The notes under the pieces are model-generated. The model made no database searches, was not told where the DNA came from, and worked only from the letters and a program-made list of their open reading frames with translations. Positions 1,973-51,908 of a DNA stretch of 64,000 nucleotides are shown piece by piece (the first letter of the stretch is position 1; each line of letters begins with the position of its first letter). This DNA is from Eledone cirrhosa. Taxonomy: Eukaryota. The stretch spans positions 49,476,001 through 49,540,000 of the forward strand of contig OZ024750.1 in the NCBI GenBank assembly GCA_964016885.1, read 5' to 3'. The position numbers and the translations under genes were made by a program.

Positions 1973-2185
1973 GAATGCCATGGTTGACGGAGGCTCGGCT
2001 CTGTAAGGTATAGTAATTTTTAACCGTTAAAACAATTGTAAATTGTTTAAAACTTGAACCAAATTGTTGATAAAGACACCCTCCTCCTCGTGAGAGGGGT
2101 CTTTCTGTCCGTTATTTGGCCCTTCGGGGTTAAATAGCCAGTTATTGGGGTTTTGTACCCAAAATTTCATTTTAAACAAAAAAAC

Positions 2186-4289
2186 ATGGCTACCAAAAAA
2201 AAAAAAAAAATTTCATACGTCACTCCCACTCATTCCGTCTTCTTCTTCCTCAATCATCACTACAGGAGAGAGAAGATTGTCTCTCTCCCTCCCTTCTTTA
2301 AATGTGTCTCTCTCCCTACCTTCTCTTTCGCAAGCGACGAAAGAAAAGAAAAGTCTCGTGCAAAGCGTGCAAGGTTTCTCCACGACGACGACGACAGCGA
2401 CGAAACAGGTGTGCGGGAAATACGAAAACCCAGTTCATTCGTCTGACGTCAGGAATAATAGCAGTAGCAGCCGTAATAACAACAGCAACAGTGACAATGA
2501 AAACAACAGTAGCAGCCGCAACAGCATCACCAGCAGCATAAACAACAACAGCATTAGCAGCAGCAACACCAACAACAACCACAGCAACAGCGGCGGAGGC
2601 AGTAGTCGTAGTACCTGCAGCAACAACAAAAGTACCAGCAGCTCTGACGACAACAACAACAGCAGAGAAAAACCAATCTCATTTGCAGGTATTGCGAAAA
2701 ACCTGGAAACAATCCTCATAACAAATGAGGAATTAGAGGAAGCGAAGAAGATGGTGACAAAGAACGGACACCGAGCAATCTGCAAGGCAGCGAAAAATTT
2801 TTTCGAAACCCAAGAGCACTGTACGGTCACGTACCGTACAGTAAGTACAAAATCCCGTAGGGTGGAAAGAGCCACAGAGGCCCAAATACAAAAAGCCTTG
2901 GGGTCTGTGTGGCAGAGGAAAACGCACATCACCCGAGGCAAAAAATACGCCACCGTAGACGTACTTTTTGCCACACCCCAGGAGGCAAAGGCCCAATCAG
3001 TAGTGACCCTAAGGAGCGAGGAAATGGTGTTGGTGCCCTCCTACTGCGGGCAAAAAATTGTGAGGGTCAAACTGACCCACGTCCCCCCCGGAATGACCCC
3101 TTCTTGGCTGGCCGCGTCTGTCCTCGTCGGAATCGAGGACAAAACAACTGTACTGCAAGTACAGAAAAAAGTAAGAGAAGATTGGGTCGGCTCCTCCATT
3201 GAGATGCTAATCCAAACCAACCAGGAGTGCATCGAAGCTATCCCGGATGTGATAGACTTCGATAACGGCACTCAACTGCCCATAAGTGTTGAGGGCAAAC
3301 GCCCGAAATGCTTTCGCTGTGGATCGAAGACTCACCTCAGGGCCTTCTGCAACGAGAAGACCCTGAGAAAGGAGAAAACCCCCCTCCTCCCGAATCCGGT
3401 TCCACGGCTACCAGCAACAGGACAAGCGGCAACCAGGAACGATAGGTCCGTGGCACCCATACCCACTCCACGGAAATCAAAGACAGCAGCAGCAGTGGAA
3501 ATATTAACAACAACAACAGCAATACCAAATGCAGCTGCAACAGAGACTCCAGTGCAAACATCACCAACAACAACAAGTGAAAGAGTGGAGCTGGTACCCC
3601 TCCCCGACCTTACAGAATCAGACATGGAGTGTGAGGTGGGAGAGGGATGGCAAAAGGTCTCAAGAAGGCACAAACGCAGAAGCAGCGCATCGTCGCCTTT
3701 GAAAAGGGAGGAAAGAAATGAGAAAAGGGTAAAGTCTACTGCAAAGAGACCCACAGCAGCAACACCACCAACACCATCACCACCCACACCAGCACCACCA
3801 TCACCACCGGCGACAACCCCACCGCCAACAACACCTTCAACACCACCACCACAAGCACCAACATCGCAAACACAACAACAAAACACACACACCCAGCAAC
3901 AACGACAAGAAAATAGCAGAACCACACCCCACCCCCAGAAAAACAAATGCACGGCAATAAACACACACAACAAGAAACTAATGACTTACATAATTGAACA
4001 CACAGACATTTCACAACAGGACTACATAATACCAGCACCAATCAAAACGCCAACTAACATAAGACTGCTAAAAATAGCACAGAAACAATACACAAACATT
4101 AAAACGAAATTCCCCAACGCAGTTGGTGATTTCAGGGACCTAGGAGGAACCATTAATCGAAGAGTATATTCAGACATTCTCTTAGAAGAGCCGACGACCA
4201 GCCGAAGGGACGATTCAACGGTCCCTTCACCAGACGATCAAGTGAAAAGGGATGTAAAAACCATCCCTCCTCTACCAAAAATACGGTAA
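2186..4289 (+). CDS. LINE ORF1 (gag-like nucleic-acid-binding protein)
   Basis: Zinc knuckle CFRCGSKTHLRAFC plus S/N- and P/T-rich tracts. The likely start is ATG 2186 (aaacATGg), which reaches the long ORF only if the A16 run at 2195-2210 is A15. Confidence 0.85.
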
Positions 4290-4324
4290 GTGGTCTTTCC
4301 CATCTTTTCCACTCTATTTTAAAC

Positions 4325-7300
4325 ATGACCTCACTCAGAATAGGCAGCATAAATGCGCGTGGCTTGGGGTCGTCATGGAAGCAGGGTCACCTGCTCAACG
4401 ACCTCAGGTCACTAAACATAGATGTAGTGGCCATCAGCGAGACCAGAATCTCCGAAGCACGGGCCTTCGCACCGATCTTCGGCGGCTACGATGTGTACGC
4501 ATCTCCCAGCCGTCCTGGATCGGGTGGAGGAGTTGCTGTGCTTTTTCGGAGAGGTTTGGATCTCGCCATACGGGCCATCTTCCTGGACCCAGAGGGTAAG
4601 CTGGTGGTGCTGGACGTGACCAGCGGAGACGGGCAAGCTTTCAGGCTAGTGGCCGTCTATGCCCCGACAGGAGCAGGGCGGCCTGATTTCTTCCGGCGTC
4701 TGGAGACCTTTCTTGGAACGTCGCGCTCTTTAGTGTTAGTGGGCGACTGGAACGGGATCTTAGATGCACGCTGGGACTGTGTGGGATTAGCGGATAGGGG
4801 TGGAGGGTGCAAGAGCCTCACCAACCTGCTCAGGCGTTTTGAACTGTCTGACAGGTACCGATTGGATTTCCCGAATGTGCCAATGTGGACTTGGACAAAC
4901 CGCATAGGGTCATCCAGATCATATCTAGATAGAGTATTTTGTAGGGAAATAGATAGGTCTAGCATAGGCTGTCCACAATTCAAGATAGTCAGCTACACGG
5001 ACCACAAATTCGTGATCTGTGTGCTTGACTTAGATAGGCTTCATAGACGAGGACCCGGCTACTGGAAGCTAAACGCGTCCTTACCAGCGCGCAAGGCCTA
5101 CAGAGACCGGATTAGCGAACTAGTTAAGCGGGCGTTGACGGGGGCCATCGTCAACAACAAGTGGTGGTTTGCTCTGAAAAGAGCGATTAGAATAGAATCG
5201 ATTAGGTTTAGTAAGGCTTTAGCAATAGAGAAAAATAGAGCAGAGGGAGAACTAGTTAGAAAATTAGACGAGGCGCTTAGCAAAGGCATTGCGACCGACG
5301 TGCTTGCGGCGAAATTGGCCCTTGACCAATTCTTCAATGCAAAGCACGAAGGCTGCGTTGTCAGAGCTAGGGTGCGTGCTCTCAGACACGAGGGGACGAA
5401 AGCCGTTCAATGGGCCCGAGTGGCGGAGGCGCGTCGTGGCAACAAAGCCACGATCCGGTCTTTGGTGGACCACGACGGGCGCATGCTACTCGATCCCGGG
5501 CAAATGTGTGAAGCTTTTCAGCGACACTTCGCTCAGCTGTTCGGGGGCAGCGGGGGGCCGGGTAGAGGGATGGACTTTAGTGTCTACCTCGACGGACTGC
5601 CGCGGCTCTCGGCCACTGAGGCGAAGTGTTGCGAAAAGCCGATAACAGCCGCTGAAGTAAGGGAGGCAATGACTGGCTGCACAAGGGGTAAATCGCCTGG
5701 TTTGGATGGTCTGCCCTATGAACTTTACGTACAGATGCCAGACTTGTTCGGAGGCCTCTTGGCGGACGTCTACTGCAACTGGCAACAGAACGGGAGAATT
5801 CCCAGTTCTGTGAGCCGAGGAGCGGTGGCACTGCTGAGAAAGGATCCGAACAAGGGGGATAACATAGACAATTTCCGGCCCATAACTCTGCTAAACACAG
5901 AGTTTAAGATTTTGGCCAAGGTGCTAGCAAAGAGGTTGGCGCTTGTCGTTGGTGGTCTGGTGGGAGAGGCGCAGACATGCGCCATTCCCGACAGATCCAT
6001 CCACGACAACCTCCACCTCATGCGATACATCGTAGAGAGGGTAGCTAGGGAACCTGGCACGGGTGGGTCCTTGATCAATTTAGATCAGTCGAAAGCTTTC
6101 GATAGGGTCGACCATCGTTACCTAGCGGCAGTCCTGAGGGCGGCTGGCTTTGGGCCCGTCTTCAGAGGCTGGATCGCTGCCATGCACAGCGACATCTGCT
6201 CTGTGGTGAGAGTGAACGGTCACCTGTCGGAACCGTTCAACATCATGCGCTCGGTCCGCCAAGGATGTCCCCTCTCGTCCCTCTTGTACGTATTGACTCT
6301 CGAGCCATTACTGCACAAACTGGAGACGTTGAGGGGAGTCCCGCGCGAACTAGGATGCGGAAGATCCGTGTCAGCATATGCGGACGATGTCACCGTAGTG
6401 GTGTCGAACGCCAAACACATCGAGGCGATCGGCACTACACTAAGAGAATACGAAGCGGTGACAGGAGCAATGATCAACCAGGAAAAGTCAGTGGGCCTGC
6501 AGCTCGGCACCTGGAGAGGCAGGTCCATGCCGTCCAACAGCGTCGTCGGGCGCTGGACGGACGGACCGGTTAAATTGCTAGGGGTCTGGTTCGGTCCGGA
6601 CCTCCAGACGGACAAAAACTGGGACGAGGTGACGAGCAGGGTGGCTTCTCTCACCCAGAAATGGGCGGAGAGGAAGCTATCCCTGAAAGGTCGAGCGGAG
6701 GTGGCTAACGCGTACATCGCGTCTGTCATCTGCTACCGCCTAACCGTCGTACCTTGTCCTAAGCCTCGCCTGACTGCGCTGGAGCGTTTGCTCTTTCGCT
6801 TTTTGTGGAAGGGACGTGCTCCGATGGTCAGGCGGTCCATCTGTTGTCAACACCCGCTACGTGGAGGGCTGGGCATGCCGTGGCTGATGATGCGCAGGCA
6901 CGCGCTCAGGCTACGACATCTCCACCTCTTCCTCGACGGTGATCAGGTGTGGTCGCCGTTTGCTAGACGCGTTTTTCCCCAGCTCGTTTCCTTGACGGAG
7001 CTGCAGTCCTGGGTCAAGCGAAGACCGAGAGGGAGCGCCTGGAGACTGGAATGTCTTCAGGCGCTCACAGCCCTCGACCAATCGGGCAATGTGATCGGTG
7101 GAAACTCCACCTCGGCGTTCTATAGAGGATTAGTGGAGGGGAAGAGCGACGACGTACTTGGGGAAACTCTAGGCGTCGACGAAAATCAACTAGCCAATCT
7201 CTTCGGAAGAACCTTCGGGCCGGGGCCTATGGACAACTTCCAGAAATCTCTGGCCTGGCAGTGCTACCGAGGAGCCTTGCCAGTTCGGGATAAACTCTAC

Positions 7301-7744
7301 AGGCATGGAGGTGCCGTCAGCCGGGCATGTCCGAGATGCGCGCAGGGCGACGAAACCGTCCTGCACGCACTCGTCCAGTGTCCGAAAATTGCTGACTTGT
7401 GGGTTTATGTCGAACACCTGCTGTCGCGTTTAGGACGGATCCAGCTATCATCTGAGTCTATCGTGAGGATTGCCCCGCCCTCCTCCTTTAGCCGGGAAGG
7501 GCAGGCAGTTTTTATCTGTCTGGTGGCCATGGCGAAAGAGATAGTATGGTGGACACGTTTGAAAGGGCTGAAGACGAGCACTTACCTCTTCGGTGATGCT
7601 CTGATTGACTTTTTCAAATTTCATTTGAAAAGGAAAATCAGAGTAGAGAAGGAAGTGCTCTCTTCCCAGCATTTTGTTGAAAGATGGGTGAGAGAAGCAA
7701 GAATGGCCCGAGTGAATGGGCCGACTCTGAGTATATATCTGTAA
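4325..7744 (+). CDS. LINE ORF2: APE endonuclease + reverse transcriptase + C-terminal zinc finger (1139 aa, uninterrupted)
   Basis: APE motifs SINARGL, SETR, VYAP, GDWN, LDR, TDH. RT motifs KSPGLDG, FRPITLLN, DQSKAFDRV, RQGCPLS, YADD. Zinc finger CPRC..ETVLHALVQC. Confidence 0.97.
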   Translation: MTSLRIGSINARGLGSSWKQGHLLNDLRSLNIDVVAISETRISEARAFAPIFGGYDVYASPSRPGSGGGVAVLFRRGLDLAIRAIFLDPEGKLVVLDVTSGDGQAFRLVAVYAPTGAGRPDFFRRLETFLGTSRSLVLVGDWNGILDARWDCVGLADRGGGCKSLTNLLRRFELSDRYRLDFPNVPMWTWTNRIGSSRSYLDRVFCREIDRSSIGCPQFKIVSYTDHKFVICVLDLDRLHRRGPGYWKLNASLPARKAYRDRISELVKRALTGAIVNNKWWFALKRAIRIESIRFSKALAIEKNRAEGELVRKLDEALSKGIATDVLAAKLALDQFFNAKHEGCVVRARVRALRHEGTKAVQWARVAEARRGNKATIRSLVDHDGRMLLDPGQMCEAFQRHFAQLFGGSGGPGRGMDFSVYLDGLPRLSATEAKCCEKPITAAEVREAMTGCTRGKSPGLDGLPYELYVQMPDLFGGLLADVYCNWQQNGRIPSSVSRGAVALLRKDPNKGDNIDNFRPITLLNTEFKILAKVLAKRLALVVGGLVGEAQTCAIPDRSIHDNLHLMRYIVERVAREPGTGGSLINLDQSKAFDRVDHRYLAAVLRAAGFGPVFRGWIAAMHSDICSVVRVNGHLSEPFNIMRSVRQGCPLSSLLYVLTLEPLLHKLETLRGVPRELGCGRSVSAYADDVTVVVSNAKHIEAIGTTLREYEAVTGAMINQEKSVGLQLGTWRGRSMPSNSVVGRWTDGPVKLLGVWFGPDLQTDKNWDEVTSRVASLTQKWAERKLSLKGRAEVANAYIASVICYRLTVVPCPKPRLTALERLLFRFLWKGRAPMVRRSICCQHPLRGGLGMPWLMMRRHALRLRHLHLFLDGDQVWSPFARRVFPQLVSLTELQSWVKRRPRGSAWRLECLQALTALDQSGNVIGGNSTSAFYRGLVEGKSDDVLGETLGVDENQLANLFGRTFGPGPMDNFQKSLAWQCYRGALPVRDKLYRHGGAVSRACPRCAQGDETVLHALVQCPKIADLWVYVEHLLSRLGRIQLSSESIVRIAPPSSFSREGQAVFICLVAMAKEIVWWTRLKGLKTSTYLFGDALIDFFKFHLKRKIRVEKEVLSSQHFVERWVREARMARVNGPTLSIYL

Positions 7745-9393: not shown

Positions 9394-9500
9394 ATATGAA
9401 TAGAATTAGTCCCTCATCAGTGATCTTCCAACTTTTATAAATCGATGAAATACCAATGAAAGTTGGCAGATCACTGATGAAGGACTAATGTTATTCATAT
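9394..9500. repeat. Imperfect ~45-bp-arm inverted repeat with a partial hammerhead core (ctgatgaaggac)
   Basis: atatgaatagaattagtccctcatcagtgatcttccaactt pairs with aagttggcagatcactgatgaaggactaatgttattcatat. Confidence 0.75.
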
Positions 9501-9591
9501 ATATATATAAATATATAGTTCGGAATAACTGAAAATAAAAAAAATAAAAACAAACACAGGATTAAATTTTAAAAATATTATTAGTCTCACA

Positions 9592-9767
9592 GGGTGGTGA
9601 ATTGGCAGTATCGGTCGAGGGTCGGGCACCATGCTTCGACGCATAGAGTTACGGCCCTTGCCATTCTGAGTTCAAATCCCACCGCGGTTAACTTTGCCTT
9701 TCATCCTTACGGGGTTGATAAAATAAAGTACCAGTAATGTACTGGGTAATTGCTGGCCTTGTGCCTA
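9592..9767 (+). mobile_element. tRNA-derived SINE, 5' part, interrupted by the parvoviral insert (3' remnant at 17360-17368)
   Basis: Matches the intact copies at 40567-40750 and 51721-51908 (B-box gagttcaaatcc, 'ggggtcgataaaataaagtaccag', 'gctggccttgtgccta'). TSD attattagtctcaca at 9577-9591 and 17369-17383. Confidence 0.9.
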
Positions 9768-9899
9768 TCCGCTAAATTCTTTAGATTCCTCAACCTCCCT
9801 CCCTCCCGGTCAGGTCTCCTATCCAAAAGTTCAGTGCATAGCACAGTTAGGAGAGGGGACAGGCAAAGATATCAAATTACAAAGCAAGATTTGACAGTT

Positions 9900-10060
9900 A
9901 AGAAATGACGCAATATTAAAGCTACATCAGCAAAAAATAATGCTTGCGTTAGCAAAAGTATAAATAGAACCACGTGACAGTAATTCAATATGCTAACGTC
10001 AGCAAGAATCGAGATATAAAAACAAAGAGCGCGCAACTCAAACTGCCACAACTCAGCAGA
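9900..10060 (+). promoter_or_regulatory. Putative viral Pol II promoter (repeated in copies 2 and 3)
   Basis: TGACGCAA ATF/CEBP-like site at 9906, TATAAATA at 9959, E-box CACGTGAC at 9971, TATAAAA at 10015, all upstream of ATG 10104 and ATG 10168. Confidence 0.6.
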
Positions 10061-10103
10061 CATCTTGCAGATACGAACGCCGTTACTCCGCAAAAAGATC
10101 AAC

Positions 10104-10157
10104 ATGAATTACGAAGATTTAAAGACGAGAGATCGAGATATGATTACTTCTTTGGCG
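10104..10157 (+). CDS. NS1: Predicted NS1 exon 1 (MNYEDLKTRDRDMITSLA), copy 1
   Basis: caacATG start, ending at the consensus donor GCG|GTAAGT (GT 10158). Phase 0, in frame with the NS exon after the acceptor at 11775. Confidence 0.72.
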
Positions 10158-10167
10158 GTAAGTCAGA

Positions 10168-11736
10168 ATGCCTTTACATTTACCAGGTTATAATTATTGT
10201 GGTCCATACACAAACAATTTACAAAAACAACCTGTTAACGAATTAGATAAATGCTGTCAAATACACGACATAGAATACGGTAAAACAGAGGTAGATATAG
10301 CAGAAGCAGATAATAGATTAATACAGTGTTCTGAAAATATAGGCGGAGTAGCGGCGTTCGTAGTAGCAAACACAATCAAAGCTAAGAATTGGGTTATGCC
10401 ACCGGCGAACAAAAAAAGAAGAGTAGAAGAAGAACAATCTAAGAAAAATCAAGAAGACCTTTGCGACGCATCAGACGAAGACTTTGTATCACAAGACAGC
10501 GGAATTAATAGTCAAACAGTAGACATGGGTGATCCACATGTAGGTCCAGCTCCTGGGGGCTCAGCAGCAATGGCAAGTGGAGATCAACCACCAGACATAG
10601 GCGATAAAAATCCAATCGTTTCAAAAAAATTTTCAAGAACTTTCATACACTACATAAACTGTTCGGATAATCCTACAGATAAAGCAATATACAAAACACA
10701 TGATGATGAATACATAGAATTAACAATAAAACACAGAGCATCATACATACCATATACAGAATTAAAAGCTAGTATGACAATAGCAGAATTAGAAACATAT
10801 TTAACACCTTGCAATAATTTCAGAGTTAAATCATGTGGGTATCAAATATCAAATATAATTCCTTTAACAGACGAATTAGGAACATTACAAAATACAACTA
10901 CAACTAACACAACATTCAATACAAGACCATGGATGATACATTACGTCGATAATAAATACTGTTTATTTCCTAATCAAACATACTTAATAGGACATTTAAA
11001 CAATAATTGGACACATAACGTACCATTAACAAGGGAAGAAGGGAAACTAAATCAATGCATTACAAATAGATTAATTAGAAAAGATTGGTGGTTATGGCAA
11101 GATACTAAGGCAGCGAAACCTACAGAACAAGAAATACCAGCAGAAGAAATATTGTCTTATTTAAACACTGGTCAATTTCAATTCGTTTACGCTGGGGACA
11201 CAGCAGGATATACATGGGTAAATAGAACTCCAAGTTGGTTCAATATGATGAACTATTATGCATTTAATTCTACATACGAACCACCAACAATAAAACTAAC
11301 TAACGGGTTACCATGCGAAATAAATACTTATTCGGGGGCTAAAAAAAGTGCATGGGCACCAACGGAAAAAGGGGCATGGAGTAAATCAATGGCGGTAGAT
11401 AAATCAAATGAAGAACAAAACACTGGCAGATCACATTTAACACAGTTTCCAATAAATCCATCTAATCCACCGCCAATAGCTACTTTAGATTCTGTACCTA
11501 TTCTAGATTCTCAAAACAATCCGGCTAAAATATCATTCATGATCACAATAACTTATCATTCTGAAATAGATTTCGAATATATTTCTGGCAGTCCACAAAC
11601 CATGGGTTGGATGGCATGGGGAAAAGACAATGCAACAATACAAAATTCAGCCAAAACAAATCTATGTAAATGGCCGCAAGGTTTACGTAATTATGAAATA
11701 ACGAGAGTCGGTAAAACCCGACAAGCTCATCGTTAA
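10168..11736 (+). CDS. VP1: Parvoviral capsid protein with N-terminal PLA2 domain (522 aa, intact), copy 1
   Basis: Ca-binding loop LPGYNYCGP, catalytic NELDKCCQIHDIEY and ADNRL, NLS-like PANKKRR, Gly-rich segment near internal Met residues, T/N-rich capsid-like body. Confidence 0.9.
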   Translation: MPLHLPGYNYCGPYTNNLQKQPVNELDKCCQIHDIEYGKTEVDIAEADNRLIQCSENIGGVAAFVVANTIKAKNWVMPPANKKRRVEEEQSKKNQEDLCDASDEDFVSQDSGINSQTVDMGDPHVGPAPGGSAAMASGDQPPDIGDKNPIVSKKFSRTFIHYINCSDNPTDKAIYKTHDDEYIELTIKHRASYIPYTELKASMTIAELETYLTPCNNFRVKSCGYQISNIIPLTDELGTLQNTTTTNTTFNTRPWMIHYVDNKYCLFPNQTYLIGHLNNNWTHNVPLTREEGKLNQCITNRLIRKDWWLWQDTKAAKPTEQEIPAEEILSYLNTGQFQFVYAGDTAGYTWVNRTPSWFNMMNYYAFNSTYEPPTIKLTNGLPCEINTYSGAKKSAWAPTEKGAWSKSMAVDKSNEEQNTGRSHLTQFPINPSNPPPIATLDSVPILDSQNNPAKISFMITITYHSEIDFEYISGSPQTMGWMAWGKDNATIQNSAKTNLCKWPQGLRNYEITRVGKTRQAHR

Positions 11737-11775
11737 AGTAATATTACAACAAATCTATCCATTTTATATTTGCAG

Positions 11776-12531
11776 AAAAGAGGAATAAAAATGTACATGT
11801 GCATTTATCCTTGGATACTTGAAACGGACTTCAGTTGGGACAACGGTAGAGTTCCGATACAACACGACGAAATAACAACAAACGATTTCGACGAAAAAGA
11901 AGGGGCATACAAGAATAACTTTCTAATTAATGCAAACAGAAAAATAATAGAATTTATTCAAATCAACAAGGCAACAGTAATTTACCATCCAAAAGAATCA
12001 AAAATATGCGACAAAAAGGAATGGAATGCGTTCAACCACTTCCATATCATATGGAATTCAGAGATAAGACCAGGAGAAAACCAACGTCTCAAATACGTGA
12101 GAAGCTTGTACAAAAAGGGAACACAGTTAGCGCGATACATACCAGAGTGTCAAAGAGTAAAGTTCCCTAGCAGCATGGCCAATTACTTCTGCCAACCACC
12201 GAGATATTTACTGATAAAAGGCCTCGGTTCTATAAACTCTGAATTTGCAGAATGGTGCTCGAAAGAATACGTACCTAAATGTAGCCCAACACCTAAAACG
12301 AGTACATCAACAAGACATGCCACGGACGAACCGACATTCAAAAGCAGAAGTGGTACGACTTTAACTCTATTCAACTACCTGACGTATATATTCACATCAA
12401 AAAAATTTCGAAACGAACAGGAGATGAAAACACACTGGCTTAACCGAGCAAACAACGAAGTATTTATTTCGCATGGTAACCCGTTAGTTAGTTTTATTGT
12501 TGGTGGTTCGTATGTAGAATTAAATGCATAA
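11776..12531 (+). pseudogene. NS1: Truncated NS1 exon 2 (HUH endonuclease region only) fused to antisense capsid sequence, copy 1
   Basis: Matches copy 3 NS1 up to ..WLNRANNE (12459), then reads into inverted copy 2. No helicase domain. Confidence 0.88.
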
Positions 12532-13619
12532 TAGTTCATCATATTGAACCAACTTGGAGTTCTATTTACCCATGTATATCCTGCTGTGTCCCCAGCGTAA
12601 ACGAATTGAAATTGACCAGTGTTTAAATAAGACAATATTTCTTCTGCTGGTATTTCTTGTTCTGTAGGTTTCGCTGCCTTAGTATCTTGCCATAACCACC
12701 AATCTTTTCTAATTAATCTATTTGTAATGCATTGATTTAGTTTCCCTTCTTCCCTTGTTAATGGTACGTTATGTGTCCAATTATTGTTTAAATGTCCTAT
12801 TAAGTATGTTTGATTAGGAAATAAACAGTATTTATTATCGACGTAATGTATCATCCATGGTCTTGTATTGAATGTTGTGTTAGTTGTAGTTGTATTTTGT
12901 AATGTTCCTAATTCGTCTGTTAAAGGAATTATATTTGATATTTGATACCCACATGATTTAACTCTGAAATTATTGCAAGGTGTTAAATATGTTTCTAATT
13001 CTGCTATTGTCATACTAGCTTTTAATTCTGTATATGGTATGTATGATGCTCTGTGTTTTATTGTTAATTCTATGTATTCATCATCATGTGTTTTGTATAT
13101 TGCTTTATCTGTAGGATTATCCGAACAGTTTATGTAGTGTATGAAAGTTCTTGAAAATTTTTTTGAAACGATTGGATTTTTATCGCCTATGTCTGGTGGT
13201 TGATCTCCACTTGCCATTGCTGCTGAGCCCCCAGGAGCTGGACCTACATGTGGATCACCCATGTCTACTGTTTGACTATTAATTCCGCTGTCTTGTGATA
13301 CAAAGTCTTCGTCTGATGCGTCGCAAAGGTCTTCTTGATTTTTCTTAGATTGTTCTTCTTCTACTCTTCTTTTTTTGTTCGCCGGTGGCATAACCCAATT
13401 CTTAGCTTTGATTGTGTTTGCTACTACGAACGCCGCTACTCCGCCTATATTTTCAGAACACTGTATTAATCTATTATCTGCTTCTGCTATATCTACCTCT
13501 GTTTTACCGTATTCTATGTCGTGTATTTGACAGCATTTATCTAATTCGTTAACAGGTTGTTTTTGTAAATTGTTTGTGTATGGACCACAATAATTATAAC
13601 CTGGTAAATGTAAAGGCAT
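12375..13619 (-). pseudogene. VP1: 3'-truncated capsid ORF of inverted copy 2 (414 aa; tail derived from antisense NS1)
   Basis: Matches copy 1 VP up to ..GLPCEINT, then crosses the 12458 junction. Confidence 0.9.
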
Positions 13620-15586
13620 TCTGACTTACCGCCAAAGAAGTAATCATATCTCGATCTCTCGTCTTTAAATCTTCGTAATTCATGTTGATCTTTTTGCGGA
13701 GTAACGGCGTTCGTATCTGCAAGATGTCTGCTGAGTTGTGGCAGTTTGAGTTGCGCGCTCTTTGTTTTTATATCTCGATTCTTGCTGACGTTAGCATATT
13801 GAATTACTGTCACGTGGTTCTATTTATACTTTTGCTAACGCAAGCATTATTTTTTGCTGATGTAGCTTTAATATTGCGTCATTTCTTAACTGTCAAATCT
13901 TGCTTTGTAATTTGATATCTTTGCCTGTCCCCTCTCCTAACTGTGCTATGCACTGAACTTTTGGATAGGAGACCTGACCGGGAGGGAGGGAGGTTGAGGA
14001 ATCTAAAGAATTTAGCGGATACCTATCCGCTAAATTCTTTAGATTCCTCAACCTCCCTCCCTCCCGGTCAGGTCTCCTATCCAAAAGTTCAGTGCATAGC
14101 ACAGTTAGGAGAGGGGACAGGCAAAGATATCAAATTACAAAGCAAGATTTGACAGTTAAGAAATGACGCAATATTAAAGCTACATCAGCAAAAAATAATG
14201 CTTGCGTTAGCAAAAGTATAAATAGAACCACGTGACAGTAATTCAATATGCTAACGTCAGCAAGAATCGAGATATAAAAACAAAGAGCGCGCAACTCAAA
14301 CTGCCACAACTCAGCAGACATCTTGCAGATACGAACGCCGTTACTCCGCAAAAAGATCAACATGAATTACGAAGATTTAAAGACGAGAGATCGAGATATG
14401 ATTACTTCTTTGGCGGTAAGTCAGAATGCCTTTACATTTACCAGGTTATAATTATTGTGGTCCATACACAAACAATTTACAAAAACAACCTGTTAACGAA
14501 TTAGATAAATGCTGTCAAATACACGACATAGAATACGGTAAAACAGAGGTAGATATAGCAGAAGCAGATAATAGATTAATACAGTGTTCTGAAAATATAG
14601 GCGGAGTAGCGGCGTTCGTAGTAGCAAACACAATCAAAGCTAAGAATTGGGTTATGCCACCGGCGAACAAAAAAAGAAGAGTAGAAGAAGAACAATCTAA
14701 GAAAAATCAAGAAGACCTTTGCGACGCATCAGACGAAGACTTTGTATCACAAGACAGCGGAATTAATAGTCAAACAGTAGACATGGGTGATCCACATGTA
14801 GGTCCAGCTCCTGGGGGCTCAGCAGCAATGGCAAGTGGAGATCAACCACCAGACATAGGCGATAAAAATCCAATCGTTTCAAAAAAATTTTCAAGAACTT
14901 TCATACACTACATAAACTGTTCGGATAATCCTACAGATAAAGCAATATACAAAACACATGATGATGAATACATAGAATTACAATAAAACACAGAGCATCA
15001 TACATACCATATACAGAATTAAAAGCTAGTATGACAATAGCAGAATTAGAAACATATTTAACACCTTGCAATAATTTCAGAGTTAAATCATGTGGGTATC
15101 AAATATCAAATATAATTCCTTTAACAGACGAATTAGGAACATTACAAAATACAACTACAACTAACACAACATTCAATACAAGACCATGGATGATACATTA
15201 CGTCGATAATAAATACTGTTTATTTCCTAATCAAACATACTTAATAGGACATTTAAACAATAATTGGACACATAACGTACCATTAACAAGGGAAGAAGGG
15301 AAACTAAATCAATGCATTACAAATAGATTAATTAGAAAAGATTGGTGGTTATGGCAAGATACTAAGGCAGCGAAACCTACAGAACAAGAAATACCAGCAG
15401 AAGAAATATTGTCTTATTTAAACACTGGTCAATTTCAATTCGTTTACGCTGGGGACACAGCAGGATATACATGGGTAAATAGAACTCCAAGTTGGTTCAA
15501 TATGATGAACTATTATGCATTTAATTCTACATACGAACCACCAACAATAAAACTAACTAACGGGTTACCATGCGAAATAAATACTT
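12458..15586. repeat. Giant palindrome: ~1564-bp arms around a 2-nt CC spacer (14022-14023)
   Basis: Centre reads ..tttagcggata-CC-tatccgctaaa.. The only difference noticed between arms is the 1-bp deletion near 14980. Confidence 0.93.
14362..14415 (+). CDS. NS1: Predicted NS1 exon 1, copy 3
   Basis: Same sequence as 10104-10157. Donor GT at 14416, acceptor AG at 16031-16032. Confidence 0.72.
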
Positions 15587-15993
15587 ATTCGGGGGCTAAA
15601 AAAAGTGCATGGGCACCAACGGAAAAAGGGGCATGGAGTAAATCAATGGCGGTAGATAAATCAAATGAAGAACAAAACACTGGCAGATCACATTTAACAC
15701 AGTTTCCAATAAATCCATCTAATCCACCGCCAATAGCTACTTTAGATTCTGTACCTATTCTAGATTCTCAAAACAATCCGGCTAAAATATCATTCATGAT
15801 CACAATAACTTATCATTCTGAAATAGATTTCGAATATATTTCTGGCAGTCCACAAACCATGGGTTGGATGGCATGGGGAAAAGACAATGCAACAATACAA
15901 AATTCAGCCAAAACAAATCTATGTAAATGGCCGCAAGGTTTACGTAATTATGAAATAACGAGAGTCGGTAAAACCCGACAAGCTCATCGTTAA
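14426..15993 (+). pseudogene. VP1: Capsid ORF of copy 3, split by a 1-bp deletion at ~14980
   Basis: gaattaacaata (copies 1 and 2) versus gaattacaata (copy 3), giving ORFs of 186 and 320 aa. May be a sequencing error. Confidence 0.85.
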
Positions 15994-16032
15994 AGTAATA
16001 TTACAACAAATCTATCCATTTTATATTTGCAG

Positions 16033-17376
16033 AAAAGAGGAATAAAAATGTACATGTGCATTTATCCTTGGATACTTGAAACGGACTTCAGTTGGGACAA
16101 CGGTAGAGTTCCGATACAACACGACGAAATAACAACAAACGATTTCGACGAAAAAGAAGGGGCATACAAGAATAACTTTCTAATTAATGCAAACAGAAAA
16201 ATAATAGAATTTATTCAAATCAACAAGGCAACAGTAATTTACCATCCAAAAGAATCAAAAATATGCGACAAAAAGGAATGGAATGCGTTCAACCACTTCC
16301 ATATCATATGGAATTCAGAGATAAGACCAGGAGAAAACCAACGTCTCAAATACGTGAGAAGCTTGTACAAAAAGGGAACACAGTTAGCGCGATACATACC
16401 AGAGTGTCAAAGAGTAAAGTTCCCTAGCAGCATGGCCAATTACTTCTGCCAACCACCGAGATATTTACTGATAAAAGGCCTCGGTTCTATAAACTCTGAA
16501 TTTGCAGAATGGTGCTCGAAAGAATACGTACCTAAATGTAGCCCAACACCTAAAACGAGTACATCAACAAGACATGCCACGGACGAACCGACATTCAAAA
16601 GCAGAAGTGGTACGACTTTAACTCTATTCAACTACCTGACGTATATATTCACATCAAAAAAATTTCGAAACGAACAGGAGATGAAAACACACTGGCTTAA
16701 CCGAGCAAACAACGAAAATTTCATGCGCGCTATCAGTCATCCCATGTACGACAGCGTCATGAAGAAAGTACTCGAATGCGTGAAACTGAAAACACTGATA
16801 ATGCCATTCAAAGAGAAGTTCGAGAATATGAATTGGAAACAATTTGAAAACACCAAATTATGGATGGATACCGAAACTTCGTTGAAAATATTTAGATCAA
16901 TAATTATGACACAAGACATAGACGAAGAAGAACTTGTAAAATGTATTTGGGATTTGCTTAATAAATACAAAGCCAAAACAAACTTGCTTGTATTCACCGG
17001 CCTGCCTAACACAGGCAAATCAATGATCGCGCGTAGTATATCTAACATGTTTACGCACGTCAGTACCATTCAAGGAACGAGCAGCTTCCCTTTCCAGAAT
17101 TTAATAAATGTGGAGCTAGGTCTCATAGAAGAACCTAACTTCTCTCTTGAAACTCTACAAACTTTTAAGAAATTGGCGGAAGGGACGGATACTGAGGTAT
17201 CAGTTAAATTCCGTCAAGACCAAATAGTACACAGGACACCATTAATAATAACTTCGAATAATAAATTCGATAAAAATGCTCCTATAGAGGAAAAAATTGC
17301 TTTCATTACGCGTTACAATGAATTCAATTTCATTGCCGCATCACCTTTCAATACCAATTGTAGAAACAATTATTAG
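16033..17376 (+). CDS. NS1: NS1/Rep exon 2: HUH endonuclease + SF3 helicase; C-terminus truncated and ending in host DNA
   Basis: HUH motif NHFHIIW, candidate catalytic Tyr in ANYF, Walker A GLPNTGKS, Walker B LIEE, B' KKLAEG..VSVK, motif C LIITSN, Arg finger AFITR. The stop TAG lies inside the host TSD. Confidence 0.93.
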   Translation, partial: KRGIKMYMCIYPWILETDFSWDNGRVPIQHDEITTNDFDEKEGAYKNNFLINANRKIIEFIQINKATVIYHPKESKICDKKEWNAFNHFHIIWNSEIRPGENQRLKYVRSLYKKGTQLARYIPECQRVKFPSSMANYFCQPPRYLLIKGLGSINSEFAEWCSKEYVPKCSPTPKTSTSTRHATDEPTFKSRSGTTLTLFNYLTYIFTSKKFRNEQEMKTHWLNRANNENFMRAISHPMYDSVMKKVLECVKLKTLIMPFKEKFENMNWKQFENTKLWMDTETSLKIFRSIIMTQDIDEEELVKCIWDLLNKYKAKTNLLVFTGLPNTGKSMIARSISNMFTHVSTIQGTSSFPFQNLINVELGLIEEPNFSLETLQTFKKLAEGTDTEVSVKFRQDQIVHRTPLIITSNNKFDKNAPIEEKIAFITRYNEFNFIAASPFNTNCRNNY

Positions 17377-20300
17377 TCTCACACGCTTGGTGAGAGTATG
17401 TTATGCGACGTTTCGCGCATAAGCACTTCATCAGGAGAGTGACGGGCGGGGGGGGGGGGAGTTAGCGAGAAAAATAAAAATAAAAATAAATTGAAAATGG
17501 AACATGAAGTGGAAAAATGTTATATAAAAAAAAACAGAATATTAAAAAGTGAGAAGGATGTATGGATCTGCGAGAAAGGGCAAGGAAAAATGAAGTCTGA
17601 GCGGTGATGGCTAAAGGTGAGGTGTGTGTGTTTCTGTCTGTATATATATATACGTCTGTGTATGTGTATGCCTGCATGTAAGTGTGAGAGTCAGGGGGAG
17701 AGCGGGCGTACGCGACTGCGGCTTTTGAAAAATATGTGTGTGTGTGTATTTGTGTGTTTGTGTGTTTGTGTGGGTGTGTGTGTGTGAATTTGTTTTACTA
17801 CTACCTCTAAACAGAAATCCTTTTGCTGACAGTGTGTTCCACTTTACTATTTGGGAATCGCAAACTTCATAGTAATAAACGTTAATGATAGCCTTCATAT
17901 GATGTTTCATAACTATTCATATCACATTCTATTTAAGATTACTAGCATGGACATTTCATTGATTAGGAACTGATCATAATTTTGGTGTTATATATACCCT
18001 GTATAATTATCTTTAACTGCTGTTTAAATTCTGAATTCAGAATTCTGAAAGACTTATCTAGCCATTATATCCTAGTTTATTAAGCGCCAAATATACATGT
18101 GAAACATTGGAGATGAAATTGTCTGGCGAATATTTTCATCAAAATCACCCCAAATTTTTATTTCGTCGCACAGTCACTACAATATTGATATCAATATTCT
18201 GAGAATCTAATCCTGTATAAGACTTCCTAATCCGCATTCATTTTTAATTGAACTAGCGAATATTTTTACTTGAACAAAAATATTTAGATCTGAAAATATT
18301 TTCCTAAGATACACATATATTAGTATGCCCATGAGCCTCATTATCAACTGAAACTTGGACTTGTTTCAGGCGCATGCGAGGCGTGCTATAAATCTCGTTT
18401 CACCCTATGTGCCCTATATTTATTAGTGCTCGAGAAATCACTGAGATCCAGCAATGACGAGACCTCGGCATGTGAAGGAAAATTAAAGCTCACTTTACGA
18501 TGGGTTTGCTGTAAAATTACGACTTCATTAGGGATAGAGCATCAGAGATGGTGATCAGATGCCCCCTTCAATATACCGGTAGAAGTAATGTTCTGAGTGG
18601 AACGAAGCAACGTGAAATAAAGTGTTTCGTTCAAGGACATAATGCATTATCGGGAATCGAATTGACGACTATCAACATGCACTGCACCAAGACCACTTCC
18701 CAAATCACTTAAACACGCACCTTCATTATTCAACGGTGTTTTTGTCGACCGCAGAGTAACATGTTCGTTGGTGTTACAAAATGATATTTCGTTTATCCCC
18801 AAAAATATATATAGATTAATATTTATAGATATATGAAATACCTGAATTTGGTGACTAAATATATGTAACGACATGGGTTAAAGTGCAATGAATATTTTGT
18901 ATAATACATCATCATACAACACTAAACACTGTACATTTACTTAAGCTTAGTAATAACATGTATTTAATTGATATATTTATTTTAACAGGTTTGAGAGGAA
19001 CATAAACATGCTCAGTATGAAAATATAAGATTCATTGTGTTCATAATTATCATATACTTTTTTATAGATATAGTGAAATTTTCATTGTGTACATATACTT
19101 TAAACAATTTAGAAAAATTGGAAATTCTGAAAAATGCTGTAAACCGGAGAAAGTAAACTGCATCATATATGTGTGTTATGAAACATATAATGGTTTATAA
19201 TTTAGGCACAAGTCCAGCAGTTTGGGAGATGATAGTTAATGAATTTGAACGCAGAGTGTAATGGGCCGCAACCATGTTGTTCTACGTATGTGAATTGTTC
19301 TCTGGAGAATACCACGCCAGAAAAAAATTGGACGTGCTAGTTGCTAATTACCGTAGGTATTCTGAATAAAATTTGGGCTTTTGCAAAACAACAACAACGC
19401 ATATAAGCAGCAATTAAGGTTAGCTGAAGTCTGGGTATTTGATGCCTTATGCTAGTACTTACAATGTGACTGTCCTCCCAGTTATGCAAACCAATCGGCT
19501 AAACAAAATAATTTCAGCTTACATTTAAGTTAATGAATCCGAGTCATGATGCTTCTTACAATGACTACACTACTAATATTGCTAAGTCTGCATTTCCACT
19601 TTATAGTCACTCTCCTGTTAGTTTATAGTGTGATATATCCCTCAAAAAGCACATATTATTCTCCTAGGGCTGCTCTGCAGCAGAATTATTTGGCGATATA
19701 TTTATTGATCGCTGGAAATGTGTATACATTGGATATATTTTACACAATTTTACATAAAGCACTTATCCTTTCAGGTTCGGCAACGTGTCTCTCTTAAGGA
19801 CAGCAGAATGGTGTGGGGTGTTAAAAACGACGAAGCAAAAACAAAGTACATTGAATGTTTTCCTACCTTTATCAAAGTAATCCGACCGCTATGTATAGCA
19901 ATTCAAGCCAAAACATAGAGATTCCCTCGTGATCCTGTTTTATTATGAAGTAGGGGATAATGCTAAGACAGATGTCAGAGATTAAACCCCTCAAATGATT
20001 GATTAAGGTATATCTAATTATATACTTAAAGCGATTCACGTAAATCCCTCCTAAAGGACATTGAGTTTGGCACAACAATATACAAAATATATTCATTTTG
20101 TAAATATTCATATTCCATATATGTAACTATTTATATAAGTATAGACCAAAGAATATGATAGGGAGAACGCGAGATGTAAAATATATATATGTATTTATTT
20201 GTATTGAAATAGTAATAGAATTGTCACCGTAATATTGACTAAACAATATAGTCCAATAATGGGGCTCATAAAACTACTGAAAAGAAAAGCATCTGAAAAG

Positions 20301-47510: not shown

Positions 47511-49251
47511 GCTTAATAAACTACTGCGGATGTGTTGCATTGCTGTTGAAGGGGACAAGCTCCGGGTTTACGGCAAGAGCACCATGGTGGGGTGTTGTTC
47601 TTAGAGGTGTTGGTGATGTGGGCCTTCATGTTCTTAGCGCAAGAGTACCCTAGCTTTACTTTGTGTCGGTTAAATATTGAGTGCGGTCTTGTAATTGTAG
47701 GGGTGGTCTGCTGGTCAGCGGTTTGCTGAAGAGGAATAAGAGAAAATAAAAAGGAAAATGAAAAAAGATAACTAACCTAGGTTAGTCATGTTTAGGGGTG
47801 TGGCTTTGGTGTAAACTATCTAAATACTTAAAGGGGTATTTTGTAATAGAGAGAATTAAGGTTTGTGGTTAGTGTTTGAAAAGAGTATGAATAAATAAAT
47901 AGATGAACATGTTGTTAAACTGACTATGTGTGTGAAGCTTTACAGGTTCATCTATCATTAACAGCAGAGGTCAGAGGAGTTTTCGATCCCAGTGTCGGGC
48001 CAGTTCGATATAGATTGAAACCTGAGCTGATCAATAGCGAAATGCGCGTCACTACTCAATCTAAACTATAATAAGGTAAGGTATGTGGGACTGCATCCAG
48101 AATACATTTTTTTATGCCGTTTGATTTCCTTCAATAAATAATTGTTTCTACTTTAGGCACAAGGCCAACAATTATACAGTGTATTACTGGTAGTTTATTT
48201 TATCGACCCCGTAAGGATGAATGGCAAAAATAATGAATGAATATTACATAATTTATGTACTAAATTTCGTAACTAAATTTCGTATTCATAAATATATTTA
48301 AAATTGACTTCTTTTCAAAGTTACACATTTCTAGACTTCCGGTAGATCGTCGCCACCACCACCACTTCAACTACCATATATATATAGAAAGAGAGAGTTT
48401 GTGATGTGAGAGATAGAGTGATTATGACTTTCTACACGCTGACGCCCATAAGTGTGCACATACATACATCTATATGTATGAGTATATAACTATTATCGCG
48501 CAAACACAAACTTATAAAAGTACACCCTCACGGACATACATTCAGATAAATACACATACTTTCACACAAATACATTCACACTTACATTTACACAAACACA
48601 CACACATACAGTCATGATAGCGTTCGTTGAATTGGAAATGGGATGGTAAAAGAAGTATAACCTTTTATTTATTTATTAACAACAGTTTAACTCTTTTTTT
48701 AAAAACTCTTTTGTATAAAAAGGTAATATACTCCTCACAAAACGAAAACACAAACAGATATATTATATATGCTGTAGCTTTCACTCTTACCGCTGCATCC
48801 ATGATGTGGAAACACGCAAGAGGCACTAACTGTGACGTACCATTCACACAAATACACATACTTTCACACAAACTCATACATACATTCACACAAATACACA
48901 TTCACACATGCATTTAGACAAACACACACATACAGTAATGATAGCGTTCGGTGAATTGGAAATGTGAGTGTAAAAGTACACATTTTTTATTTATTTATTA
49001 ACAACCTAGTTTAACTCTTTTTTTTAACACATTTATATAAAAATGTAATATAATGATTACAGGACGAAAACACTAACAAATATAATATATAAAAAGCAAA
49101 GGGAAAGGAAAAAAAGAAAGAGAAAAAATACATAAGCACGTAATACCCACATGTTAGACACCATAGAACAATATGCAGGCGAAAGAATGGTATAACGACA
49201 CGCTGCCAGAGCAAAAGATAGCAATATAGCGAGGAGCACTGGGAAACCTCT

Positions 49252-51720: not shown

Positions 51721-51908
51721 ATTGTTTCTACGTTAGGCGCAAGGCCAGCAATTATCCAGTGTATTACTGGTACTTTACTTTATCGACCCCGTAAGGATCA
51801 AGGGCAAAGTTAACCTCGGCGCGATTTGAACTCAGAATGGGAAGGGCCGTAACTCTATGCTGGAAAGCATGGCATCCGACACTCTACCGATACTTCCAAT
51901 CCACCGCC
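51721..51908 (-). mobile_element. tRNA-derived SINE (same family)
   Basis: Reverse complement of the SINE at 40567. Flanking direct repeat cgtgaaactaataata. Confidence 0.85.

Follow-up and report, generated by a model that had tools for sequence, protein, structure and literature searches.

Parvovirus DNA inside a split short interspersed element of the octopus Eledone cirrhosa: a probable recent capture by end joining

The window analysed here is a stretch of 64,000 nucleotides of Eledone cirrhosa (assembly GCA_964016885.1, contig OZ024750.1, positions 49,476,001 to 49,540,000 of the forward strand); positions given without a contig or locus name are those of the window. It holds an insert of parvovirus DNA of about 7.6 kb within a short interspersed nuclear element (SINE) that itself sits in an older host repeat (Table 1). 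With a probability of roughly two in three, we read the locus as a recent capture of viral DNA by end joining at a break in a SINE that was already in place.

The left part of the SINE ends in GTGCCTA, and the remainder, GTAGAAACA, resumes beyond the insert. Around the two parts stands a 15-bp repeat, ATTATTAGTCTCACA, whose copies occur at these two places only when both strands of the 64 kb are scanned. The chance of such a match at one given place is 3.5e-9, or 3.6e-6 if ATTATT, carried by most tails of the SINE family, is discounted. The target-site duplications (TSDs) of other family copies likewise begin with ATTAT straight after GTAGAAACA, and the repeat is therefore the SINE's own TSD. 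The initial annotation had placed the TSD and both SINE ends exactly so, and the two intact copies that it quoted are present, CCTAACGTAG at 51734 and CCTAAAGTAG at 48154. The family has eight matches in the window and 2746 first-look candidates genome-wide; it is short, non-coding, interspersed and flanked by TSDs, as expected of a SINE. Words resembling the A and B boxes of RNA polymerase III promoters are present in the SINE and may point to a tRNA-derived head; the Rfam search gave no match. Octopus tRNA-derived SINEs, known under the names OK and OR1, were reportedly described by Ohshima and Okada in 1994, a study cited in PMC4758252. The family in the window is like them by description (~185 bp, polymerase III boxes, interspersed copies, TSDs of 10-21 nt starting with ATTAT).

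The host flanks are two halves of one older repeat, the left half having ~70-79% identity to the paralogs. In paralog L087 the match to the left flank stops at 1930 and that to the right flank starts at 1929, and there is a single target-like word; in L088 the flanks are contiguous and agree with L087, and a third paralog, L086, lacks the target stretch. The right flank finds a 100% match at this locus only. In the assembly the insert is joined to host DNA on both sides. A misjoin is disfavoured because both layers, the TSD and the older repeat, are restored around the insert. The claim that this is a real chromosomal integration is thus supported by the TSD and by the flanks that are contiguous in L087 and L088. 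Contamination was considered and rejected, as the contig (C10) runs on with host repeats on both sides of the insert.

According to self-alignment, the insert as assembled consists of three partial parvovirus copies in the order forward, reverse, forward (segments A, B and C). The initial annotation's term, a viral concatemer, holds for the multiplicity of copies and not for their length, since none is of unit length. Segments A and B are 100% identical and C is one base off A. The whole genome is present in none of them: A and C both have a truncated NS1, C has a frameshift in VP, and the right end is absent. Segment C also has a private 1-nt deletion relative to the other copies. The left viral hairpin contains an asymmetric bubble of 63 nt, as seen in other genomic copies, and the start of A, the end of B and the start of C all fall within 3 nt of one base inside this bubble. 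The insert's first bases are hairpin DNA, ahead of the TATA-like words at 9959 and 10015, a predicted intron is retained and poly(A) is missing; therefore the template was DNA-like. The virus made no TSD of its own at the locus.

Table 1. Features of the split SINE, the viral insert and the host flanks (window positions).
Positions	Strand	Feature	Basis
9491..9591	+	Older host repeat, left half; landing place of the SINE	Collinear with and adjacent to the right flank in L087
9577..9591	+	TSD, left copy, 15 bp	Sequence repeat search
9592..9767	+	SINE body; A-box-like word near 9594-9607, B-box-like word at 9668-9679	Family matches; no Rfam match
9764..9767	+	Microhomology of 4 nt common to SINE and viral hairpin bubble	Sequence
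9764..12459	+	Viral segment A, with a portion of the left hairpin, the leader, VP and the beginning of NS1, which breaks off after ~223 codons	Self-alignment, open reading frames (ORFs), Pfam
10104..10157	+	Leader ORF, 18 codons, ending at GTAAGT donor (10158); predicted first exon of NS1	ORF and splice words
10168..11736	+	VP capsid ORF, 522 amino acids (aa), N-terminal PLA2-like domain; predicted within NS1 intron	Pfam PF08398, E 2.4e-13; fold matches to parvovirus capsids
11769..11775	+	Putative splice acceptor, in frame with the first NS ATG and 15 nt upstream of it	AG at the same place in 8/8 older copies
12458..14021	-	Viral segment B, identical to 9766-11329 in reverse complement; 2-nt microhomology to A	Self-alignment
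14010..14033	.	Fold-back turn between B and C: an almost perfect palindrome, in contrast to the asymmetric bubble of the natural turn	Sequence comparison
14022..17348	+	Viral segment C, the other forward copy, with a VP frameshift near 14980 and NS1 (from 16048) cut after the helicase	Self-alignment; Pfam PF01057, E 4.2e-16
17349..17359	+	Non-viral filler, 5-11 nt; last 2-6 nt may be SINE tail; 9 nt match left flank 9449-9457	Sequence
17360..17368	+	SINE 3' end, resumed	Sequence
17369..17383	+	TSD, right copy	Sequence repeat search
17384..17786	+	Older host repeat, right half	Paralog comparison

At the left junction, CCTA is exactly common to SINE and virus, and the preceding base is A in the virus and G in the SINE. 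The sharing was reported correctly in the initial annotation; its assignment to the viral terminus was not, as CCTA sits inside the hairpin bubble. The microhomology is 4 (or 2) nt at this junction and 2 nt at each of the A/B and B/C joints. At the right junction the viral sequence stops at 17348, where another viral copy reads on differently, and 11 nt precede GTAGAAAC. This filler had been missed, the SINE having been taken to resume directly after the virus. The stated loss of about 2 nt of the SINE holds under one parse only: TT at 17358-17359 fits the real tail variants CCTATT and CCAATT (79 and 21, respectively, among the first 100 of 227 listed matches), and therefore 0-2 SINE bases were lost. 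The break falls 9-15 nt short of the SINE 3' end. The filler's 9-nt match is no more than suggestive of templating from the nearby flank. A LINE (long interspersed nuclear element) tail or a SINE-subfamily tail was tried as the source of the filler and rejected: one 17-mer is unique to the locus and a 19-mer has six other matches, five of them SINE tails, which is insufficient to demonstrate a second template.

A genome search with the virus returned 70 matches, many of them older pieces at 64-84% identity. Recent copies were found on C998, C14 and C5, with 2-5 differences from segment C over 3.0-3.3 kb (99.85-99.94% identity). These three loci have unrelated flanks and show inversions or fold-backs at differing positions, or deletions; a 76-nt copied piece and duplications of 9-14 nt are also seen at their junctions. 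None of the three has a SINE within 370 nt; a SINE lies 120 nt from one of 12 older loci, several loci being cut short of their ends. In another genomic copy two fold-back ends lie ~3.9 kb apart, and the window insert keeps only part of the left one. A virus-derived transposon was rejected, since the ends differ at each recent locus and no TSD of its own was found, a 14-nt shared word at C998 being microsatellite.

Among 94 full-length copies gathered, four have a neighbour at 98% or above, whereas the closest relative of this SINE reaches 96.5% identity; its best match among 40 of 2746 candidates scored is 96%. One 31-mer that includes its rare alleles has a single occurrence in 3.0 Gb. The virus, at ~99.9% across four loci, is far younger than the SINE. 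This age contrast, together with the lack of a SINE abutting the other recent loci, favours capture into an older SINE over co-insertion, in which a LINE reverse transcriptase would start on the SINE RNA tail, jump to viral nucleic acid and return, and the TSD would come from this single event. The break does lie close to the site of priming, 9-15 nt short of the end of the SINE, and an open LINE ORF2 exists in the window, but after 7.6 kb the enzyme would need to return to within 0-2 nt of the point where it left the SINE RNA. Segments A and C run in the SINE's sense and begin at one base, as such a jump could produce; the insert nevertheless holds hairpin DNA and no poly(A). The right piece does look like a tail variant that differs from the left piece at overlapping places. 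The SINE, however, has private alleles and no near-identical sibling in the samples, in contrast to the uniform virus. We consider co-insertion quite unlikely. The initial annotation, which had called it less parsimonious and had dated the integration after the SINE, anticipated this order of events. Its proposal of end joining likewise agrees with the microhomologies of 2-4 nt and the short local duplications seen at the junctions here and at the other recent loci, because of which end joining is supported.

Several points weigh against such a capture. SINE matches make up 1.5% of the window, and landing in one of them, within the last 15 nt, needs luck; the break is suspiciously near the start point of reverse transcription. 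The search for SINE siblings was partial rather than exhaustive. The two nearest SINE relatives end in CCAATA, not CCTA, which may shorten the left microhomology from 4 to 2 nt. The 9-nt match between filler and flank is equalled by 2.5% of 5000 control words near the site and by 13.5% in the wider region. The private deletion of segment C may be a consensus error, a hint of thin read support. Finally, among the public assembled contigs of sequencing runs, none crosses either host-virus junction, the A/B joint or the B/C joint, and the empty allele was not seen.

The region was matched by 23 public runs, four at high share and all four from one study; no RNA run with the region is among the 23 listed. 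Contig alignments covered X1-X5 of the runs X1-X23, of which X21-X23 are restriction-site-associated DNA runs. Contigs of X1-X3 and X5, aligned to 17150-17720, show neither the junction nor the host flank at 17400-17720, and X5 aligned nothing. The assembled junctions of the C14 and C5 copies are likewise mostly absent from the X1-X3 contigs, and therefore the absence in these runs is not specific to this locus. Alignment of X1-X4 contigs to the locus was swamped by SINE contigs. Apparent joints from ~9740 to 17354 were rejected as the empty allele, as their short side has only 20-22 letters and they equal other SINE copies. No alternative haplotype was found in the assembly among the 40 of 455 candidates scored. 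Depth in X1-X3, which is not a copy number, was 2.8-18.6 for viral contigs and 4.2-6.9 for host contigs; this order is more in line with a few integrated copies than with an infection of high titre.

These contigs also bear on the layout of the insert. Its ends could be real and its internal forward-reverse-forward order an artefact of assembling or reading palindromic DNA, the true insert being simpler or of another copy number. The near-perfect palindrome of the B/C turn, the 100% identity of A and B and the single difference of C would be in keeping with an artefact, yet the copies on C14, C998 and C5 also carry inversions or fold-backs, at differing positions, and snap-back genomes are described as a known parvovirus by-product (PMC9463555). 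Similarly, contigs run unbroken through the viral position of the A/B joint and none spans it, but the junctions of other loci are mostly missing from X1-X3 as well. We regard an artefact of this kind as unlikely.

The insertion could also be real but somatic, coming from an infected tissue clone of the sequenced animal. The near-identity of the four loci implies extreme recency, the virus is at high share in one study only, and no second individual with the locus was seen. A second sample, X4, however, agrees with the C5 copy in its allele at 11307, and one of its contigs departs from the viral sequence where the C14 junction lies, neither of which concerns this locus, and the many older copies at 64-84% show that the lineage enters the germ line. 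A rare somatic event seldom wins a consensus, which also counts against a somatic origin, and we hold it to be improbable.

For capture at a pre-existing SINE, we propose the following order of events. The old host repeat was present first, and the SINE inserted into it and created the 15-bp TSD, as paralogs with one target copy indicate. The SINE then aged, judging by its divergence. During infection, a break near the SINE tail would have captured viral DNA. The donor molecule was likely a replication by-product broken within the left hairpin bubble, because the start of A, the end of B and the start of C converge there; fold-back synthesis and one template switch could have given the three segments. 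The left side would have been joined through the microhomology and the right side with a short filler that may have been templated, in a repair process probably of the polymerase theta type.

Comparable events are known from other systems. Adeno-associated virus (AAV) DNA captured at breaks is described with breakpoints enriched in the loops of its inverted terminal repeats, one end cut back, partial genomes, concatemers and occasional microhomology (PMC6769011). In worm germ cells, templated inserts and microhomology are reported to mark polymerase theta-mediated end joining (PMC4490562). Like AAV capture and snap-back genomes, the latter described as a by-product of parvoviruses (PMC9463555), the octopus insert is broken within a hairpin loop, retains one terminus while being trimmed at the opposite end, includes copies that are partial and concatenated, and has short or no microhomology. 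It differs from AAV capture in that the virus is a natural one of another lineage and no site-specific target is seen. Tandem densovirus-like elements in mosquito Aag2 cells (PMC13711794) and endogenous chapparvoviruses in host genomes (PMC6631224) are described; as in these elements, near-full-length parvovirus DNA lies in chromosomes in several copies with one terminus missing. The octopus case differs from them in the inverted partial copies within a split SINE, the four loci at 99.9%, the mollusc host and the opposite gene order.

VP precedes the body of NS1 on one strand, here and in 8/8 older copies, and the GTAAGT donor lies 10 nt upstream of the VP start. Eleven of 15 older VP starts have a GT donor exactly 54 nt after an ATG and an open conserved leader, although two of the eleven are identical and maybe not independent; of the remaining four, one has a leader with a mutated donor and three have no donor-like word. 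The acceptor AG is kept in 8/8 older copies, and the first NS ATG in only 3/8. On the grounds of the conserved leader and splice sites, VP is predicted to be nested within the NS1 intron: from a predicted left promoter, unspliced RNA would give VP, and a leader spliced over the whole VP gene would give NS1. Contig 31 of X4 starts at 16032, one base ahead of the predicted second exon (16033), a weak hint as the kind of run is not on record.

NS1 carries a parvovirus SF3 helicase, above the Pfam cut-off, with AAV Rep among the top matches. At its N-terminus an HFH word is present in 4/10 aligned proteins, those that cover it; the structure model is of low confidence, and there was no Pfam match to an HUH endonuclease. 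The PLA2 domain lies at VP residues 2-40. The capsid model has a predicted local distance difference test score (pLDDT) of 69, and all 49 PDB matches listed are parvovirus entries.

By its sequence, the virus has several Parvoviridae features: SF3 helicase, capsid fold, terminal hairpins and a genome of ~3.9 kb, the family being described with terminal hairpins and genomes of 3.6-6.2 kb (PMC10267136). Its relationships were judged by fold ranks and features, and any placement at the subfamily level is tentative. The best solved capsid matches are to the Hamaparvovirinae, namely Syngnathus scovelli chapparvovirus (PDB 9NEK, E 4.8e-13) and Penaeus stylirostris densovirus (3N7X, E 2.3e-9), at only 11-17% identity. 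Hamaparvovirus NS1s also rank high by fold for the low-confidence NS1 model, and the small genome is a further likeness, as is splicing from one promoter region, described for mouse kidney parvovirus, MKPV (10.1101/732537). Two features speak against membership in this subfamily: the octopus virus has a PLA2 domain, which the compared hamaparvovirus genera lack, and its VP comes first, opposite to the NS-NP-VP order described for chapparvoviruses (PMC6631224).

Gene models named 'capsid' and 'nonstructural' in Octopus vulgaris and O. bimaculoides, by automatic naming only, have 38% (VP) and 72-78% (NS fragment) identity to the virus; five of the capsid models are on one O. vulgaris chromosome. 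To our knowledge, the known monosense parvoviruses all have NS first. A search of the viral contig collection found no free relatives. Metagenome contigs gave two distant ambisense relatives at 30%; in P0013 and P0004 the longest contig is 4017 nt in both, perhaps one genome-sized relative. Parvovirus-related sequences are reported from molluscs in six hosts (PMC5013282). A literature search, with most subscription journals and supplements outside its reach, found no octopus parvovirus, no VP-first order and no paper on the Octopus gene models; supplementary tables of PMC5013282 may list such sequences.

Further observations concern the other viral copies. At C14:8497122-8502525 (L013, L016) two near-identical copies stand tail to tail, and read-through transcription of this pair would yield long double-stranded RNA. 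The C5 copy has the 76-nt piece, from the VP gene, at its far junction beside a TA microsatellite (L014 1179-1254), and its NS1 is internally deleted. At L012, L013 and L014 alike, one or more of the ends fall in a TA or TG microsatellite, and two of these loci have viral duplications of 9-14 nt at the junction. At L018 (C25:7914101-7920099) two viral pieces ~70% alike stand head to head, which suggests that two strains were captured at one site. The left (L012 881-1000) and right (L014 4501-4650) viral hairpins differ but have a tract of GGGA repeats in common, where NS1 may bind.

Other repeats were noted at the locus and in the window. Another SINE (51734-51908) has a target word very similar to the TSD of the split one, as does L002, and this older repeat may be a frequent landing place of the family. 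At L055, L056, L081 and L082 the initial 42 nt of the SINE are repeated in tandem. In the left flank, 9405-9489 is an imperfect palindrome of 85 bp (78%). A LINE at 2094-7744 (+) has two long open frames of 731 and 1195 aa, stop to stop, the second with endonuclease, reverse transcriptase and zinc-binding domains. From 60731 onward (+), a 353-codon open stretch resembles a reverse transcriptase fragment.

The nested insertion is an ordinary, known kind of event; what is new is the layout of the virus, which is of greater importance than the insertion, and the four fresh loci. Together, the TSD and the interrupted older repeat attest to an integration of very recent date, and the locus is a clean presence/absence marker with three predictable alleles. 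On balance, we favour the view that the virus belongs to an undescribed octopus parvovirus lineage, outside the named subfamilies and with the whole capsid gene in the NS1 intron, that is at present making its way into the genome, as on many earlier occasions, the locus being a dated snapshot of endogenisation in progress. A capsid gene in the NS1 intron, if true, would invert the usual layout and raise the question of early and late expression timing. A comparison of the four near-identical loci with the many older ones would make it possible to measure, in a mollusc, how fast parvoviruses become endogenous and what then becomes of them.

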